DNA from: Minisyncoccota bacterium | GTDB taxonomy: Bacteria > Patescibacteriota > Minisyncoccia > Phycocordibacterales > UBA9973 | Length of the DNA: 64,000 nt | Assembly: GCA_041664465.1 (NCBI GenBank) | Contig: JBAYKP010000001.1 | Coordinates: 68,204-132,203 of the forward strand | Direction of reading: 5' to 3' | Shown: positions 25,534-53,356 of the stretch, one piece after another | How positions within the stretch are numbered: position 1 is the first letter of the stretch | Layout of the letters: each line of letters opens with the position of its first letter | Notes under the pieces: generated by a model | What the model saw: only the letters and a program-made list of their open reading frames with translations | The model's database searches: none | Told to the model about the DNA's origin: nothing | Made by a program: the position numbers and the translations under genes

Positions 25534-25559
25534 ACTAGTGTTTTAGAAATACTCAATCA

Positions 25560-25597
25560 AAAGCACCGCGACGTAGTCGCGGTGCTTTTGTGTTTTG
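25560..25597. terminator. bidirectional rho-independent terminator shared by the mini-protein gene (+) and the two-TM operon (-)
   Basis: aaagcaccgcgac-gta-gtcgcggtgcttttgtgtttt. 10-bp GC-rich stem with T runs on both strands. Confidence 0.7.
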
Positions 25598-25635: not shown

Positions 25636-25956
25636 TTACTGTAAATTTCCAACTGTATAGTCGCCGTTTTGAATCTTGATACCTTTCGTGCCCAATGTAG
25701 TAAGTAAGATATTCATAATTCCAAAGACAGCCACCATAATAAACATTCCGACTACTCCCCAAAGCATATGTTGCTTGCTAGTCTTCCTTATCTCTTCATT
25801 ATCCGGAGACAATAAATATTTCGCAAGTCCATATATAAAGTATATGATAGCCAAAGCAAATAGGAAAGTAATAAGAGGATTGATGATAACCCTATTGATA
25901 CTTGCCATAAGACTGACAACATTTGCTTCTGCAACTGGAATGATTTGAAAATTCAT
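25636..25956 (-). CDS. secreted two-TM hairpin protein, paralogue D (VirB2/TrbC-pilin-like module)
   Basis: Start taken at MNFQIIP. The module is hydrophobic helix (PLITFLFALAIIYFIYG), LSPDNEEIRK loop, then W-containing second helix (MLWGVVGMFIMVAVFGI). It is shared with ORFs 25964-28434. Confidence 0.55.
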   Translation of the reverse strand: MNFQIIPVAEANVVSLMASINRVIINPLITFLFALAIIYFIYGLAKYLLSPDNEEIRKTSKQHMLWGVVGMFIMVAVFGIMNILLTTLGTKGIKIQNGDYTVGNLQ

Positions 25957-25963
25957 AATAATA

Positions 25964-26338
25964 TTAACAAGGCAATAATTGACCAGAAGGAGTGTAAGTA
26001 GGAGTACAAGGAACGATCTGTCTACCTGATGCATTACCTACTCCGAAAGTATTCATAACGATACCTATAATTCCCCAGAAAGCCACAATAACAAAAAGAC
26101 CGATAAGCCCATTGATGATTTTCGCACGGCCACCTTTCTTAGCTTCTTCATCAGAAGACATAATGAACTGAACTATACCCCAGACGAAGTAGATAACTGC
26201 GACAGTAATCAACAAAGGAAGAACATAAGCTAAAAGTTGATTTATTCTAATAAGAATGGTATCAAAAGTTGTTGATTCAGCAAAAACAACAAATGGTGAG
26301 AAAGCCAAAACAGAACCTAATGCAATAATTTTTTTCAT
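25964..26338 (-). CDS. secreted two-TM hairpin protein, paralogue C (signal peptide + VirB2/TrbC-like module; Cys/Pro-rich tail)
   Basis: Signal peptide MKKIIALGSVLAFSPFVVFA, then helix LPLLITVAVIYFVWG, SSDEEAKK loop, helix LIGLFVIVAFWGIIGIV. The C-terminus ends VPCTPTYTPSGQLLPC. Confidence 0.55.
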   Translation of the reverse strand: MKKIIALGSVLAFSPFVVFAESTTFDTILIRINQLLAYVLPLLITVAVIYFVWGIVQFIMSSDEEAKKGGRAKIINGLIGLFVIVAFWGIIGIVMNTFGVGNASGRQIVPCTPTYTPSGQLLPC

Positions 26339-26453: not shown

Positions 26454-26810
26454 CTACTGAATCTTTTCTGGAAGACTTGGAAGAGCCGACTTGACCCCAA
26501 ATGTACCAGAGAAAATTCCAACCAATCCCCAAATACTGACCATCACAAATAAAGTGATAATACCCCAGAACATGAAACTTTTCCCATCTTTACGCTTCTC
26601 TTCATTGTCAGGATTCAAGAAATATTTAATAATCCCGTAGACAAAGCCAACGACAGCCAAAGCCACCAATAAAGGGACAACGGCATTCATCAATGTACAA
26701 GTGATAAAGTTGATAATATCCGTCAGACTCTTCATCTCTCCCACTCCCGGACAACTACTAACTGCTCCGTTCAAATTTGACCCTGCTGCATATGCAATCA
26801 ATGTATTCAT
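26454..26810 (-). CDS. two-TM hairpin protein, paralogue B (VirB2/TrbC-like module)
   Basis: VPLLVALAVVGFVYGIIKYFLNPDNEEKRKDGKSFMFWGIITLFVMVSIWG. No obvious cleavable signal peptide in the annotated ORF. Confidence 0.5.
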   Translation of the reverse strand: MNTLIAYAAGSNLNGAVSSCPGVGEMKSLTDIINFITCTLMNAVVPLLVALAVVGFVYGIIKYFLNPDNEEKRKDGKSFMFWGIITLFVMVSIWGLVGIFSGTFGVKSALPSLPEKIQ

Positions 26811-26869: not shown

Positions 26870-27328
26870 TTAAGCACCATTGGTAATATCTTTGACTGTC
26901 GATCCGATCGCTTGGGCTATAACATAGGCTCCTAAGAGTAATGCTCCACCGATAACTGTATAAAGGAGCGTCCTGTGCGCTATCTCAAGCTCACTTGGAT
27001 TCCCTTGAGCCTTCACATAGAGGAAGCCAGCATAAATAATAGCCAGAGCAAGGATAGGTATACCCACAACGAGGACGATATTGATAATGGCTTCTATGAA
27101 TTTCGGAATCGTATCTAGATTCTCTCCTAGCGGATTCTTGATCCCCGCATCAACTTTGACTCCTGCAGGACAAGTAGTAGCTGTTGTTTCTACCCCATTA
27201 CATTTAATAGCAAACGCCACAGGACTCAATAGTATAAAACCTAAAACTAAAATAGGTCCTAATTTTAATATATTCCCCAAAATACTATACTTTTTTCTTT
27301 TTAAATTTTTCATACTTTGTCTCGCCAT
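26870..27328 (-). CDS. secreted two-TM hairpin protein, paralogue A (signal peptide + VirB2/TrbC-like module)
   Basis: A basic N-terminus plus signal peptide ...ILVLGFILLSPVAFA, then two hydrophobic helices separated by KAQGNPSELE. Confidence 0.55.
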   Translation of the reverse strand: MARQSMKNLKRKKYSILGNILKLGPILVLGFILLSPVAFAIKCNGVETTATTCPAGVKVDAGIKNPLGENLDTIPKFIEAIINIVLVVGIPILALAIIYAGFLYVKAQGNPSELEIAHRTLLYTVIGGALLLGAYVIAQAIGSTVKDITNGA

Positions 27329-27366: not shown

Positions 27367-28434
27367 TTACTTTTGTAATGATGATTTGTCTAAGAATGTA
27401 TTGATTTCTGCATTTTTATCAAGCAAAGTTGTCATAATAGTATTCACGACAAGCCAAGCTGCGAGAGCCACGATATATCCGATAACTACATTGAAGAGTA
27501 TATGCCTTGCTTTCTCTGTCTGGCCTGCACTCCCACCAGCCGTCAAGAATAAATAGGCAGTATACATTATGATAAGAGCTACCAATGGAGTCGCAATAGT
27601 AAATAATACGAATTTAATAAGATTATTTAGCAATAACATAAAATAATTGAAATCACAGGGATTCTTGTATTGACCAGTCACTTTGTCTATCTCGCCAGTA
27701 TTACAAGTGGGGACAATTTTACTGCCATTATCTTGGATAACGGGAGTAGGAGTATTGATAGGAGTGACAGGAGCATTTTTATCTATCAATGTATCGAATC
27801 CAATTTGTTTATGAGTAACATTACCGTCTAAATTTAAATCTAGTGATGCGTCATAAGAGTGCCCTGCAGTTAAACCCTCTACTTTAAATTGAAATGTCCC
27901 ATCAGAAGCTGAATTAATAGTCCATACTTTAAATGGAGCTTGCGCCGTCCTATCATACACTGATAATTGATAAGCTTGACTTGTCATCAGACCAGAAGCT
28001 TTCAATAAAACAGAGGTCATAGTGACAGAAGTAATATCGTATTGAAATACAATATACTCTGCGGTAATGATTCTAAAAATGTCAGAGCTGACGGTACTCA
28101 AATTACTAAAATTCATCACTGTAATCTTGCCATCTGTAGCACCAACGGGCACTTTAACTTTGATTTCAGTAGCCGTACAACTTTCTACAATAGTTCGGAC
28201 CGTATTAAATGTTACATAATCTAGACGCTGGAAATTCTCACCCTTAATAGTAATGACGTCACCTATCTTTGCAGAAAGCGGGCTAATGCTTGTAATCACG
28301 GGAGTAACTTTGGCATTTAGAAGTGAAGAATCATCACATTTCACTGCAGCAAAAACCTTATTCACATTTATAAAACTACTTATAAAAATAATGACCAGTA
28401 TTAAACTAAATATAATTCCAATATTTTTTTTCAT
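27367..28434 (-). CDS. secreted IPT/TIG-domain protein with a C-terminal two-TM pilin-like module (fusion paralogue)
   Basis: Signal peptide, then ITSISPLSAKIGDVITIKGENF...TEIKVKVPVGATDGKITV (IPT/TIG-like Ig fold), a beta-rich middle, then the C-terminal FVLFTIATPLVALIIMYTAYLFL..GQTEKARHILFNVVIGYIVALAAWLVV module shared with the four downstream paralogues. Confidence 0.55.
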   Translation of the reverse strand: MKKNIGIIFSLILVIIFISSFINVNKVFAAVKCDDSSLLNAKVTPVITSISPLSAKIGDVITIKGENFQRLDYVTFNTVRTIVESCTATEIKVKVPVGATDGKITVMNFSNLSTVSSDIFRIITAEYIVFQYDITSVTMTSVLLKASGLMTSQAYQLSVYDRTAQAPFKVWTINSASDGTFQFKVEGLTAGHSYDASLDLNLDGNVTHKQIGFDTLIDKNAPVTPINTPTPVIQDNGSKIVPTCNTGEIDKVTGQYKNPCDFNYFMLLLNNLIKFVLFTIATPLVALIIMYTAYLFLTAGGSAGQTEKARHILFNVVIGYIVALAAWLVVNTIMTTLLDKNAEINTFLDKSSLQK

Positions 28435-28437
28435 AAA

Positions 28438-29751
28438 TTATTTTGTATTATAATTTCTAAGAATAAGATCCAGCTGGCTGGAAGCTTTATTGATAGCATC
28501 TGTTACTGAAAGCTTGTTGGACAATGAATTCTCTATCAATTCTTTAAAAATAGAATCGGATTGTTCTTTGTCGGGATCAAGCCATGAACGAGCGATAATA
28601 GCAGAGTCAAAGAAAGTGACCAGATATGGGTCTTTGGGCATATCTCTAAGCAAAGACCTCGTCGCTGTAGGTATTGAAGTGCTAATGCCTAACTCTTTAA
28701 GGAAATCAGGGGCAGTTATAAGGGATGAGACTCCTAGGGCAGAGGCTAAATTCATGGACTTTTTATTGGCGACTAACGTATAGATATTGCCATACGTGCG
28801 TTTGATACTGGTCCCCTTTGTCTGAGGGATAGTAGTAACATCAAAACTCAAATTTGGATTGACGGATTGTATTTTAAATAATTCACTGGCATATCCTATA
28901 TAAAAAGCAAGCTTTCCACTTGAAAACATTTCAAAAGAATTTGGCATTGAGCGATTCCAAGAATAAGATTCATTGGAAGGATTTGAGAATTCTAAGAAGA
29001 AATTTACAATCTGTTCAAATGGGGCAACCCCACTAGGCAGAGTATCTTTAATCGTTAGAGCATATCCGGTACTTGTTCGCGCAACTATAGAATTATCGCT
29101 TTCAAGTAAAAGCATTGAGAGAATATCTTTGGAGTGATTCACATTATCATACTGACCGAAGGCTATCATACTTTGTGTGATAGTGCCATCACTTTTTTTC
29201 TTTATCAATTTAGAACCTAAATTAAATAATTCATCCCAAGAAGTCGGAGGATAAAGAATCCCCTCATTGGAAAGCATATTTTTGTTGTAATATAAAACTA
29301 ATGGATCTACTAGTAAAGGAGACCCTATCACTCCATCATTCGCGAGCAAGATATCAGCTCCATCAATATATGAAGTTCGGAAAGATTTCTCGGATAAGCT
29401 AGCGTATGGAATTTTGTAAATAAAATTACTGTTCTTTAGAATCATATCGGGAGTCAGGATGAATAAATCAGGAGCAGAGTCTTTTGCTATTGCTTCTATA
29501 AGGTTCTGTTCATAGCTATCACTCTTCTGTTCTTTATAAGTCACAGTAAAGGGGGCATTGGAGCCAGCGATACTTTCAACTAGTGATGAGACTTGCGCAC
29601 TAGGCAAAGTCCCCCAAATAACAATCTTACCAGAAATCGCATTGGTCCCGCTACTACTCCCACCAATTTTAAGAATTCCAGAGAATATCAAAACTCCAAA
29701 AACAAAGAAGGCTAAAAATATTGCAACCAAGATTGTTTGAAAATTATTCAT
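28438..29751 (-). CDS. ABC transporter substrate-binding protein (family 1, sugar-type), membrane-anchored
   Basis: An N-terminal TM segment, then KIVIWGTLP...LFILTPDMI...PLLVDPLVLYYNKNML, typical of extracellular solute-binding protein family 1. Confidence 0.55.
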   Translation of the reverse strand: MNNFQTILVAIFLAFFVFGVLIFSGILKIGGSSSGTNAISGKIVIWGTLPSAQVSSLVESIAGSNAPFTVTYKEQKSDSYEQNLIEAIAKDSAPDLFILTPDMILKNSNFIYKIPYASLSEKSFRTSYIDGADILLANDGVIGSPLLVDPLVLYYNKNMLSNEGILYPPTSWDELFNLGSKLIKKKSDGTITQSMIAFGQYDNVNHSKDILSMLLLESDNSIVARTSTGYALTIKDTLPSGVAPFEQIVNFFLEFSNPSNESYSWNRSMPNSFEMFSSGKLAFYIGYASELFKIQSVNPNLSFDVTTIPQTKGTSIKRTYGNIYTLVANKKSMNLASALGVSSLITAPDFLKELGISTSIPTATRSLLRDMPKDPYLVTFFDSAIIARSWLDPDKEQSDSIFKELIENSLSNKLSVTDAINKASSQLDLILRNYNTK

Positions 29752-33760: not shown

Positions 33761-34372
33761 CTATTTTCCTACGCAATAATTGTAGATAGAATAATTATAA
33801 TCTGCATGAAGATAATTATTGGGACTAAAAGGATCTATTACATCAATGTGCCCCAAATTATTTTTATCAGAAGTATTTTCAAGCCAAGTGCAAAGTAAGT
33901 AATGAGTTGCATTATAACTACCTAAAGTTCCATTTGATCTATAGTGATAAAGTCTATTTACAGATTGTCCAGGAGGATTACCGCTCCAAGGGAACATTCC
34001 CGATGCAACATTTACCGGGTCACGAGGAACATAAGACATACTACCACTATTAACAAGTGGCAAAAATAAATTGTTCCAAGAATTTAAACCAGTATCCCAA
34101 GCTGGATTTGTATTTGCATAAGTTCCTGATATTGCAGAAGTCGTGCCAGTTGCTGGATATCCACCATGAGTATCATAATATAATTCTAGGGCGATACTCA
34201 TTTGACGAAAGTCTGACTTTCTTCTAGAATCATTAGCTTTTATTTTTGCCTCATGTAAGAAAGACAACACAACTGTTGATAAAATTCCAATAATTGCAAT
34301 TACAACTAAAAGTTCAATTAAAGTAAACCCTTTATTTGATGAAATTAAATTTTTCTGCAAAAATTTAAACAT
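33761..34372 (-). CDS. type IV pilin (prepilin with N-terminal methylation motif)
   Basis: KGFTLIELLVVIAIIGILSTVV is the class III signal / N-methylation site (G|FTLIEL). Confidence 0.8.
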   Translation of the reverse strand: MFKFLQKNLISSNKGFTLIELLVVIAIIGILSTVVLSFLHEAKIKANDSRRKSDFRQMSIALELYYDTHGGYPATGTTSAISGTYANTNPAWDTGLNSWNNLFLPLVNSGSMSYVPRDPVNVASGMFPWSGNPPGQSVNRLYHYRSNGTLGSYNATHYLLCTWLENTSDKNNLGHIDVIDPFSPNNYLHADYNYSIYNYCVGK

Positions 34373-51889: not shown

Positions 51890-53356
51890 TTAAAATAAAG
51901 ATGGCTGAACTTTATAAAATTGAGGATGAACAAAATCTTTCATGAAACTTTTAGCATATGATTTATATCCACCACGATAACTTTTGGAAATTGAATTTAT
52001 ATACTCTTCCATTGAATTTGAATTTAACACTTCGCAAAGGGCATATAGATCAACATCTTTATTTTTTGGTTTTATACAATAACCAGAATAAAAACTTGTT
52101 TTTTCGTCTTCTATTACAAAAAAGTGAGGAGTGAGATTCATTGTACTAGTTATTATTTTTTTACCAAAACCAGTTTTTAAACTTTGGTTTCTTCCAAAAG
52201 AATAAAATTCTTCATAATTTTTACCACCACCCTTGTCTCTTTTTTCTAAAATATCACGATTATATAAAAAATATTTATATGCTTCTGGATATTTATTTAT
52301 AAAAATATTTTTAGGAATTATTCTTTCATTTTTATACGGAAAAATCAAAAAAAGATTCTGATTTTTCCCTTTATAAGTAGATGCTTTAATAATTGGAACA
52401 CACAAATTTCTCTCTATTTTAAAATTATCTTTATAAAAATATATTTTATCTATTTTTTCAGGAGAAAATATATAAACATCATCTTTTAATGTAGCAATTC
52501 CATAATGGATGTCCGCTATTTCTTGAAGTGTTGAATATTTTTTATTTAATTTATCTATTTTTTTAGAATATTCTTCACTTAAAAATTGCCATGGTTTTAA
52601 CTTATCTTCTATATTTTTCAATATCTTTTTATAAACAATATCATTAAAATTATTTTTATAGTTCTCTGTATATAAAAAATTATGGGTATTTTCTTTATTT
52701 AAAAATGTTATGGCGGTGTAAGTTGTTGCGTCTTTAAATACCTGAAAGTGATCAAAATTAATGATTTTTGTTAAATGTGGATAAATTAAATTTCTTAAAT
52801 TTCTCCCAGCACTAGAGTGAAAATGAGAGTTAGGTGTAATAAAAGAAAGTTTCCCGTTTTCTGTTAATAAATTCAGAGACTGCTCAAAAAAACAAAAATA
52901 TAAATCAATGGAGCCATTAGATGCTGATATAAACTTCTTTTGTATTTCATCTCTTTTTTCATTAAGATTTTGTATTCTCACATATGGAGGATTACCTATT
53001 ATAAAATTAAATTTCTCTTTAAAATCATGAAAACAAAAATCATTAATAATTGAGTTATATTGGGTAATTTCTTCATTAGATAATTCTTGTAAATTTTGTT
53101 TTGTTTTGTTTATATATTCTTCTGAAATGTCAATAAAATAAAGATTGTTTTCAATTACATCTTTTATTGATTTTCCAGATATTTTAGAAAATTTCTTAAC
53201 TATTGGAATAGAAAAAGCACCTTCTCCACATCCAGAATCTAATATTTTTTCTGATCCTGTTATTTTTGTATCTTTAAATACTTCATCAATCATAAAATCA
53301 ACTATCCATTCCGGAGTAAAAACAACGCCATTTTCTTTTTTAGATTTAACATTCAT
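51890..53356 (-). CDS. N6-adenine DNA methyltransferase (gamma-class; TaqI/Eco57I-like)
   Basis: GVVFTPEWIVDFM (motif X), LDSGCGEGAF (motif I FxGxG) and IIGNPPY (motif IV) in gamma-class order. A C-terminal target-recognition region. Confidence 0.8.
   Translation of the reverse strand: MNVKSKKENGVVFTPEWIVDFMIDEVFKDTKITGSEKILDSGCGEGAFSIPIVKKFSKISGKSIKDVIENNLYFIDISEEYINKTKQNLQELSNEEITQYNSIINDFCFHDFKEKFNFIIGNPPYVRIQNLNEKRDEIQKKFISASNGSIDLYFCFFEQSLNLLTENGKLSFITPNSHFHSSAGRNLRNLIYPHLTKIINFDHFQVFKDATTYTAITFLNKENTHNFLYTENYKNNFNDIVYKKILKNIEDKLKPWQFLSEEYSKKIDKLNKKYSTLQEIADIHYGIATLKDDVYIFSPEKIDKIYFYKDNFKIERNLCVPIIKASTYKGKNQNLFLIFPYKNERIIPKNIFINKYPEAYKYFLYNRDILEKRDKGGGKNYEEFYSFGRNQSLKTGFGKKIITSTMNLTPHFFVIEDEKTSFYSGYCIKPKNKDVDLYALCEVLNSNSMEEYINSISKSYRGGYKSYAKSFMKDFVHPQFYKVQPSLF

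Follow-up and report, generated by a model that had tools for sequence, protein, structure and literature searches.

A predicted VirB2-type pilin with a lineage-variable Ig-like head in a conserved five-gene array of Paceibacteria

The window analysed here is a stretch of 64,000 nucleotides from a Minisyncoccota bacterium (contig JBAYKP010000001.1, positions 68,204 to 132,203), in which five consecutive genes encode the pilin-like proteins A to E. The first of these proteins, pilin A, raises the question addressed here: what would a protein that begins with Ig-like domains and ends like a pilin do at the cell surface? The open reading frame (ORF) at 27367..28434 (minus strand) encodes 355 amino acids (aa), and its product is 100% identical to an NCBI protein from a metagenome-assembled genome, annotated as “IPT/TIG domain-containing protein” (Candidatus Paceibacterota bacterium). 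A large part of bacterial diversity belongs to the Patescibacteria, whose cultured members all live attached to other microbes. To our knowledge, nobody has established what patescibacterial pilins build or how these cells' type IV secretion system (T4SS) recognises a host. VirB4 was reported in 2,417 of 3,035 patescibacterial genomes and VirB2-like pilins in 1,948 of those, often as arrays of 2-11 genes (PMC12102498). In Southlakia epibionticum, a cultured patescibacterium and the only species examined in this way, the T4SS and its VirB2-like pilin array are essential (PMC10633639), and in enrichment cultures with methanogenic archaea the highly expressed Paceibacterales genes include those for T4SS pilins (PMC10936435). 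The answer that we favour, at roughly even chances, is that pilin A is a modular VirB2-type pilin showing an exchangeable Ig-like head on the filament of a secretion system.

The architecture of the protein was examined with Pfam, an AlphaFold2 model (31 homologues in the input; mean predicted local distance difference test score, pLDDT, 76) and structure searches. An earlier note on this DNA, made from the letters alone, had described a signal peptide, an IPT/TIG-type Ig fold and a further beta-rich domain, and all three were recovered, the fold itself being confirmed by structure prediction. All of the following features lie on the minus strand. The signal peptide (aa 1-29; 28348..28434) forms a helix over aa 2-22 in the model and would be cleaved at the MKKNIGIIFSLILVIIFISSFINVNKVFA-A boundary. 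The IPT/TIG Ig-like beta-sandwich (aa 45-123; 28066..28302) matches PF01833 over aa 45-106 (E=1.2e-8, 35.2 bits, cut-off 20.9) and is modelled at aa 46-123 with pLDDT >90; the family profile of pilin A also matches TIG-containing chains in the PDB, such as BACOVA_02650 (Bacteroides SGBP-B) and CGTase. The second, FN3-like sandwich (aa 131-214; 27793..28044) has strands with pLDDT 80-90. Among the best 50 Foldseek matches in the PDB, the N-terminal half of pilin A found tandem Ig/FN3 proteins with E=6.5e-8 to ~3e-5. A Pro/Thr-rich linker (aa 215-240; 27715..27792) is predicted to be disordered, with pLDDT <50 across aa 223-238, and leads into the C-terminal module (aa 241-355; 27370..27714). 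There, a beta-hairpin (aa 246-258) is bracketed by the invariant Cys244 and Cys260, which could form a disulphide, and is followed by helix 1 (aa 262-300), the polar/basic loop TAGGSAGQTEKARH, helix 2 (aa 303-337) and a short tail.

Is this C-terminal module really that of a pilin? The claim that it is common to pilin A and the four short paralogues proved correct. The C-terminal 118 aa of pilin A align with pilin B by BLASTP (E=1.4e-9, 30% identity over 103 aa), and hhalign links the A module to B (99.6%, E=2e-24), D (87%, E=4.5e-6) and E (88%, E=3e-6), with a weak direct match to C (E=5e-4). Pilin A matches the T4SS_pilin family PF18895 over aa 277-333 (E=2.6e-5), and by homology the module belongs to the VirB2/TrbC-type pilins of T4SSs. 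The label “pilin-like” was therefore right as regards pilin homology and wrong if taken to mean pilins of type IV pili. That kind was ruled out, since the N-methylation motif (PF07963) is absent from A-E and the module matches PF18895/TrbC. In the AlphaFold2 models pilin A has the VirB2-type layout, with a leader, two hydrophobic helices and a short polar/basic connecting loop. A pilin with the N-methylation motif does occur 5 kb upstream of the array, as part of a different filament system: it is a 203-aa protein of the type IV pilus/type II secretion system type (33761..34372, minus strand; FTLIELLVV…, PF07963 E=6.7e-9).

The four paralogues are also encoded on the minus strand. Pilin B (26870..27328, 152 aa), the closest paralogue of the A module by hhalign, has a long VirB2-like leader and scores 27.8 bits with PF18895 and 26.0 bits with TrbC/VirB2 (PF04956). 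Pilin C (26454..26810, 118 aa; PF18895 E=1.4e-11, 44.7 bits) and pilin D (25964..26338, 124 aa; E=1.7e-9, 38.1 bits) hold conserved positions and, like B, pass the PF18895 cut-off. Pilin E (25636..25956) matches under it (E=1.9e-4, 21.8 bits) and matches NF045849 with E=1.7e-8; its ORF can be read back to 26034, yet orthologues have 104-111 aa and the 106-aa form is the one called in relatives. Each of B-E also matches an NCBIfam model, “pilin-like conjugal transfer protein”, with a score under the cut-off of that model. A tight second subgroup consists of C, D and E (mutual hhalign 99.8-99.9%). No signal peptide can be recognised at the N-terminus of pilins C and E, in contrast to A, B and D, and these two are the most constrained of the array; they may use another insertion route, and may be core structural subunits.

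To what extent is this arrangement conserved? A locus scan with the A-module profile, run on a single genome for each GTDB species, gave 50 loci, almost all of them in Paceibacteria/Nomurabacteria. About 45 of the 50 share one gene order: a metallo-beta-lactamase-fold gene, a small gene, gyrA, a methyltransferase gene, a gene for a solute-binding protein, and the pilins A-B-C-D-E. The order of the pilins is invariant and every position is a 1:1 orthologue (that of pilin B was found in 46 of the 50 loci). Median identity of the array orthologues to those of the window is 52-66%, which is comparable to the 56% of the solute-binding protein and the 65% of the methyltransferase. Across the 17 long forms aligned, the A module has 22 invariant columns, the Cys pair included, and a mean column identity of 69%. 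A-E are thus a stable five-subunit set. We also considered a hypervariable antigenic array and rejected it for A-E, B-E being stable 1:1 orthologues with ratios of nonsynonymous to synonymous substitution (dN/dS) of 0.01-0.14. Only the pilin A ectodomain is unalignable between species within the array; only 3 loci have an ectodomain to which that of the window aligns for more than half of its length.

This variability includes complete absence. Among the 50 species, 26 have a short pilin A of 121-170 aa without an ectodomain, and 22 have a long one of 260-731 aa. In the short proteins the signal peptide is directly followed by a module beginning with ‘G(L/I)VPxC’, while in the long ones an ectodomain of ~120-585 aa is placed exactly at this junction, always with a low-complexity T/P/S/N/G linker ahead of the module. 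Because orthologues without it occur in more than half of the species, the ectodomain is dispensable. On the GyrA tree the short and long states are intermixed, a picture of frequent loss, gain or exchange, and sister genomes can differ: pilin A has 471 aa in L003 and 139 in L007, 362 in L015 and 150 in L018, 459 in L013 and 137 in L012, and 334 in L008 and 154 in L039. In one clade the long pilin A proteins (L004, L016, L027 and L028) open with a long B-type leader (MKFLKTKKYSIL…) and not with the usual short MNKK… signal peptide, a hint that A and B have recombined or have a common origin.

The sharply conserved boundary of the module, which coincides with the signal-peptidase site of the short forms, also invites the reading that the ectodomain is a pro-region, removed by cleavage at the conserved ‘G(I/L)VPxC’ to leave an ordinary short pilin and a released Ig-domain protein; VirB2, TraA and TrbC prepilins are indeed known for long leaders and extra processing. 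However, the residues before GIVP vary in the long forms (NGS-K, YKG-G, KWH-G, KYS-G) and do not make an Ala-x-Ala-type site, and a folded leader of 2-6 domains under purifying selection would be unprecedented. We regard this reading as very unlikely.

Selection was estimated against an 87%-identical relative. The dN/dS was 0.09 for the ectodomain and 0.09 for the module, compared with 0.02 for pilin C, 0.01 for pilin E and 0.03 for GyrA. Both parts of pilin A are under purifying selection, and because of the low ratio in the ectodomain the head is functional in the short term, despite its long-term turnover, rather than decaying. Conservation and selection together refute the reading that an error in sequencing or assembly joined two genes, or that the frame is a chance ORF. 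The source is a metagenome-assembled genome, and this is all that spoke for that reading, to which we give next to no credence; the identical fusion occurs in the 87%-identical relative, from independent samples, and fusions are present in 22 species-representative genomes and in more than 100 clusters at 50% identity, with selection acting on both parts.

How widespread are such proteins, and of what are their heads made? When 1.84 billion cluster representatives were searched exhaustively with a hidden Markov model, 24,237 matches reached E<=1e-3 and 99 reached E<=1e-30. The best 150 of these matches were mostly long forms of 238-820 aa, and the long forms fell into over 100 separate clusters at 50% identity. 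PF18895 was matched by 103 of 104 long forms (E<=1e-3, best 1.3e-11) and TrbC/VirB2 by 19. The ectodomains of the 104 matched TIG (26), fn3 (PF00041; 14), TIG_SUH (12) and FIVAR (4), with single cases of InlB B-repeat, LysM and others and a majority without a Pfam match; FIVAR, InlB B-repeat and LysM heads are typical surface-binding modules. Because 89 of 100 ectodomains are connected by local similarity, they are assembled, in varying number, from a common pool of Ig-like domains. The earlier note had called a pilin with such a head unusual. This holds among characterised VirB2-type pilins, where none is known, and fails within Paceibacteria, where such pilins are common. In seven matches of the same search (P0076, P0086, P0147, P0153, P0181, P0183 and P0186) one predicted protein of 500-820 aa contains 5-8 pilin-module matches in tandem; these are either true fused arrays or read-through gene calls due, for example, to a wrong genetic code.

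Extensions are not confined to pilin A. An extended pilin E was found in 12 of the 50 loci, the extension being N-terminal rather than C-terminal in one of them; A and E are both extended in 3, among them L042 and L048. A clade with short A (L021, L024, L029, L030, L031, L043, L044, L045 and L054) carries C-terminal extensions of 250-560 aa on pilin E, as in L044:10026-11849, built of ~120-aa repeats in which Cys is conserved and motifs like ‘PLCWNNNNKPFY…YHAWLDARAP’ occur. These extensions match one another, yet no Pfam family. Another layout was seen in L019:7923-9683 (plus strand) and L035:8-1861 (plus strand), two loci outside the gyrA/solute-binding-protein synteny, where an A-type module stands at the N-terminus, ahead of a Pro-rich linker and of a C-terminal extension that measures ~430-490 aa. 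The extension carries an HExxH motif (HELEH or HELTH) and might be a metallopeptidase, although a Pfam search of the two extensions matched no family. P0085, P0096, P0116 and P0138, from the search of cluster representatives, have the same module-first layout.

If pilin A is a modular VirB2-type pilin, its path to the surface can be sketched. It would be exported by the Sec pathway and lose its signal peptide, and the two C-terminal helices would insert into the membrane as a hairpin, with the short basic loop in the cytoplasm and both ends of the protein, ectodomain and C-terminal tail, outside. The hairpin would then be pulled from the membrane, as for other VirB2 pilins, by a VirB4-type machine with its genes elsewhere in the genome, and pilin A, probably as a minor subunit, would be polymerised together with B-E into a filament or stalk. 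With the N-terminus pointing outward, the two Ig-like domains on their flexible linker of ~25 residues could touch the host cell or its envelope. The pilin N-terminus of the F-type pilus “extends out” from a filament that is a five-start helix (PMC5018250), and because of this orientation a graft at the N-terminus on a flexible linker would be compatible with display on the outside. The head would be an exchangeable accessory that lineages keep, reshuffle, delete, or give up for a different extension on pilin E, and its lineage-specific presence, reshuffling and replacement fit an adaptation of host range.

The comparison with known VirB2-type pilins shows how far pilin A departs from them. 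VirB2, TrbC and TraA pilins have mature forms of ~60-110 aa with no globular domain and are encoded by diderm bacteria within T4SS operons; in several of them head-to-tail cyclisation leaves no possibility of an N-terminal fusion. Pilin A resembles those of the T-pilus and F-pilus (PF04956) in its Sec-type leader, its two long hydrophobic helices and its short polar/basic loop, and its proposed topology, with the N-terminus outward, is that of pED208/F TraA (PMC5018250). Unlike them, it has ~326 aa in its predicted mature form and two Ig-like domains, and it is encoded in a monoderm, apart from virB4. Its size thus lies outside the range of a small single-module pilin, whereas its short orthologues do fall among small pilins. 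The array, in turn, resembles the published VirB2-like arrays of Patescibacteria in its tandem, divergent PF18895 paralogues and its occurrence in VirB4-positive genomes (PMC10633639, PMC12102498). The published descriptions give 2-11 small and variable pilins, in many cases next to virB4, and mention no ectodomain fusions (PMC10633639, PMC12102498), whereas A-E are fixed at the gyrA/solute-binding-protein locus as 1:1 orthologues in ~45 species, and one subunit (A, or E in other lineages) bears a variable extracellular extension.

Several observations weigh against the proposed modular pilin. The PF18895 score of pilin A itself is just under the curated cut-off (24.6 versus 26.6 bits). PDB sequence searches with the A-module and B profiles found no solved VirB2, only chance matches (a rhodopsin, a sodium-channel subunit), and Foldseek with the A module alone gave nothing significant, the T-pilus VirB2 8exh_A ranking 2nd with E=5.8. 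Ten further large ORFs scanned in the window included neither a VirB4-like gene nor a VirD4 gene, and no VirB4, VirB6 or other secretion-system gene lies among the large ORFs of the window or within 8 kb at any syntenic locus; VirB2-family genes are characteristically encoded with VirB4, VirB6 or VirB3 machinery, and here the flanks are housekeeping genes. What would connect the array to a T4SS is homology together with co-occurrence at the level of whole genomes, and these two lines only. We know of no observation of a pilus made of these proteins in Patescibacteria. Neither A nor E is extended in 14 of the 50 loci, so a head is not essential to the system. Foldseek and the PDB profile search showed no recognisable ligand-binding domain in the ectodomain, and in its nearest PDB relatives TIG domains serve as spacers. 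The ectodomain consists of two Ig-like sandwiches of a kind that often acts as a spacer; the “adhesin-like head” of the earlier note is accordingly borne out as regards the sandwiches, and adhesion would be one possible use of them. On the side of co-occurrence, three array-carrying genomes are VirB4-positive in Table S1 of PMC12102498 (RAAC4_OD1_1, GW2011_GWD2_36_14 and GWE2_34_25), the Nomurabacteria genome GW2011_GWD2_36_14 being one with a long pilin A.

An alternative is a membrane-anchored surface protein that never enters a filament. The VirB2-like hairpin would then be only a two-helix anchor, or a non-polymerising part of a channel, as may be likened to VirB2 in T4SSs that make no pilus, and the Ig domains would be a surface spacer or receptor. 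We consider this a possibility to be taken seriously, if a doubtful one. VirB2 pilins do form a membrane pool ahead of assembly, the array has no T4SS genes next to it, and the module is joined to unrelated extensions (the ~450-aa HExxH domain of L019 and L035, the repeat domains of pilin E), as a generic anchor would be. However, the module is conserved far beyond the needs of a simple anchor, both in its invariant columns and Cys pair and in its overall identity, and it is constantly accompanied by four pilin paralogues in fixed order; two Ig domains and a 25-aa linker would moreover be short for passing a cell wall or S-layer.

Other surface proteins offer partial parallels to pilin A as a head-bearing subunit. 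Streptococcus sanguinis has modular type IV pilins, PilB (vWA module) and PilC (lectin module), in which such a module is grafted on a pilin that enters the filament at low abundance and serves adhesion. The design idea is alike, although the family is unrelated, the signal peptide is of class III, the machinery is that of type IV pili and the graft is C-terminal. VirB5 is an all-helical pentamer at the pilus tip and Enterococcus PrgB is an LPXTG wall-anchored protein. The predicted role in target contact would be similar, but these are separate polypeptides, whereas the head of pilin A is covalently joined to a VirB2-like pilin. No LPXTG motif was seen in pilin A when its sequence was read, no pattern search having been run, and no PrgB-related Pfam match was obtained; its C-terminus is the pilin hairpin. 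PrgB-type adhesins went undetected in Patescibacteria in a 2025 survey (PMC12102498). The closest solved sequence relatives of the ectodomain, BACOVA_02650/SGBP-B (E=1.7e-7), share tandem Ig-like sandwiches at the surface, but they are lipid-anchored and use their TIG domains as spacers for a C-terminal glycan-binding domain; pilin A lacks that domain and has a different anchor.

The gene neighbourhood raises a further question, namely whether the pilins work with the solute-binding protein encoded beside them. The SBP_bac_1 gene (28438..29751, minus strand, assigned by Pfam), whose product has an N-terminal membrane anchor, lies 3 nt upstream of pilin A and adjoins it with little or no gap in ~45 of the 50 species loci. 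No ABC permease or ATPase gene is found among the genes adjacent to it, the rest of the genome not having been searched for ABC permeases. The protein may be functionally coupled to the pilins, and a solute-uptake device can be imagined in which the five pilins and the membrane-anchored binding protein form, for example, a hollow filament or channel drawing nutrients from the host, with the head of A for docking. This reading overlaps with that of a filament and does not exclude it. The constant adjacency and the missing neighbouring permease are in its favour, and a review has speculated that the patescibacterial T4SS pilus is an uptake conduit (PMC12857230). Adjacency is weak by itself, however, since gyrA and the methyltransferase gene are linked just as tightly, and we judge such a device unlikely.

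The same linkage bears on the transcription unit. The genes for gyrA, the methyltransferase and the solute-binding protein precede pilin A with gaps of 0, 1 and 3 nt and, because they abut in this way, pilin A is probably not the first gene of its transcript, although it is the first pilin gene. Its earlier designation as the first gene of the operon therefore applies to the pilins and probably not to the unit as a whole, which would also include the three upstream genes. The likely end of the unit, from a terminator scan and the sequence, is a 15-bp GC-rich hairpin just after pilin E (25558..25590). Core genes flank the locus in the window (ftsA, ftsZ, gyrA, pth, hisS, dnaE and iPGM).

A broader model would bring most of these elements together, and we put it forward as rather improbable in its entirety. 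The five VirB2 paralogues would form a heteromeric filament of a single-membrane cell, perhaps with one paralogue per strand of the five-start helix known from conjugative pili, and the terminal genes of the array would provide the sockets for swappable heads, A at its N-terminus and E at its C-terminus. The heads would include Ig-like adhesins, LysM, FIVAR, the ~450-aa HExxH domain and the new Cys-containing repeat, and through the solute-binding protein the filament would be linked to the capture of nutrients from the host. Such a “display pilus”, so far unrecognised, would govern host range in Paceibacteria.

Pilin arrays as such are already known in Patescibacteria. The head-bearing VirB2 pilin, the fixed A-E set beside a solute-binding protein and the A/E “socket” pattern appear to be undescribed: ectodomain-fused or “modular” VirB2 pilins were not found in the literature searched, most subscription journals lying outside that search. 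A pilin A with a lineage-variable Ig-like head is a concrete candidate for the contact element of a patescibacterial T4SS, and the sister species with and without a head are natural pairs for comparative tests. Were the proposed function correct, pilin A would provide the first case of a VirB2-type pilin that accommodates a large grafted domain and makes use of it, which would bear on how T4SS pili are packed, and uses in surface display might follow. Such a protein would surprise T4SS specialists, and its putative function makes it a testable host-contact candidate in a major uncultured lineage.

Elsewhere in the window, the region from 50 to 54 kb has a markedly lower GC content (0.26 versus ~0.35) and contains a gene for an Eco57I/TaqI-like restriction-modification methylase (51890..53356, minus strand). 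This region may be a small foreign island.

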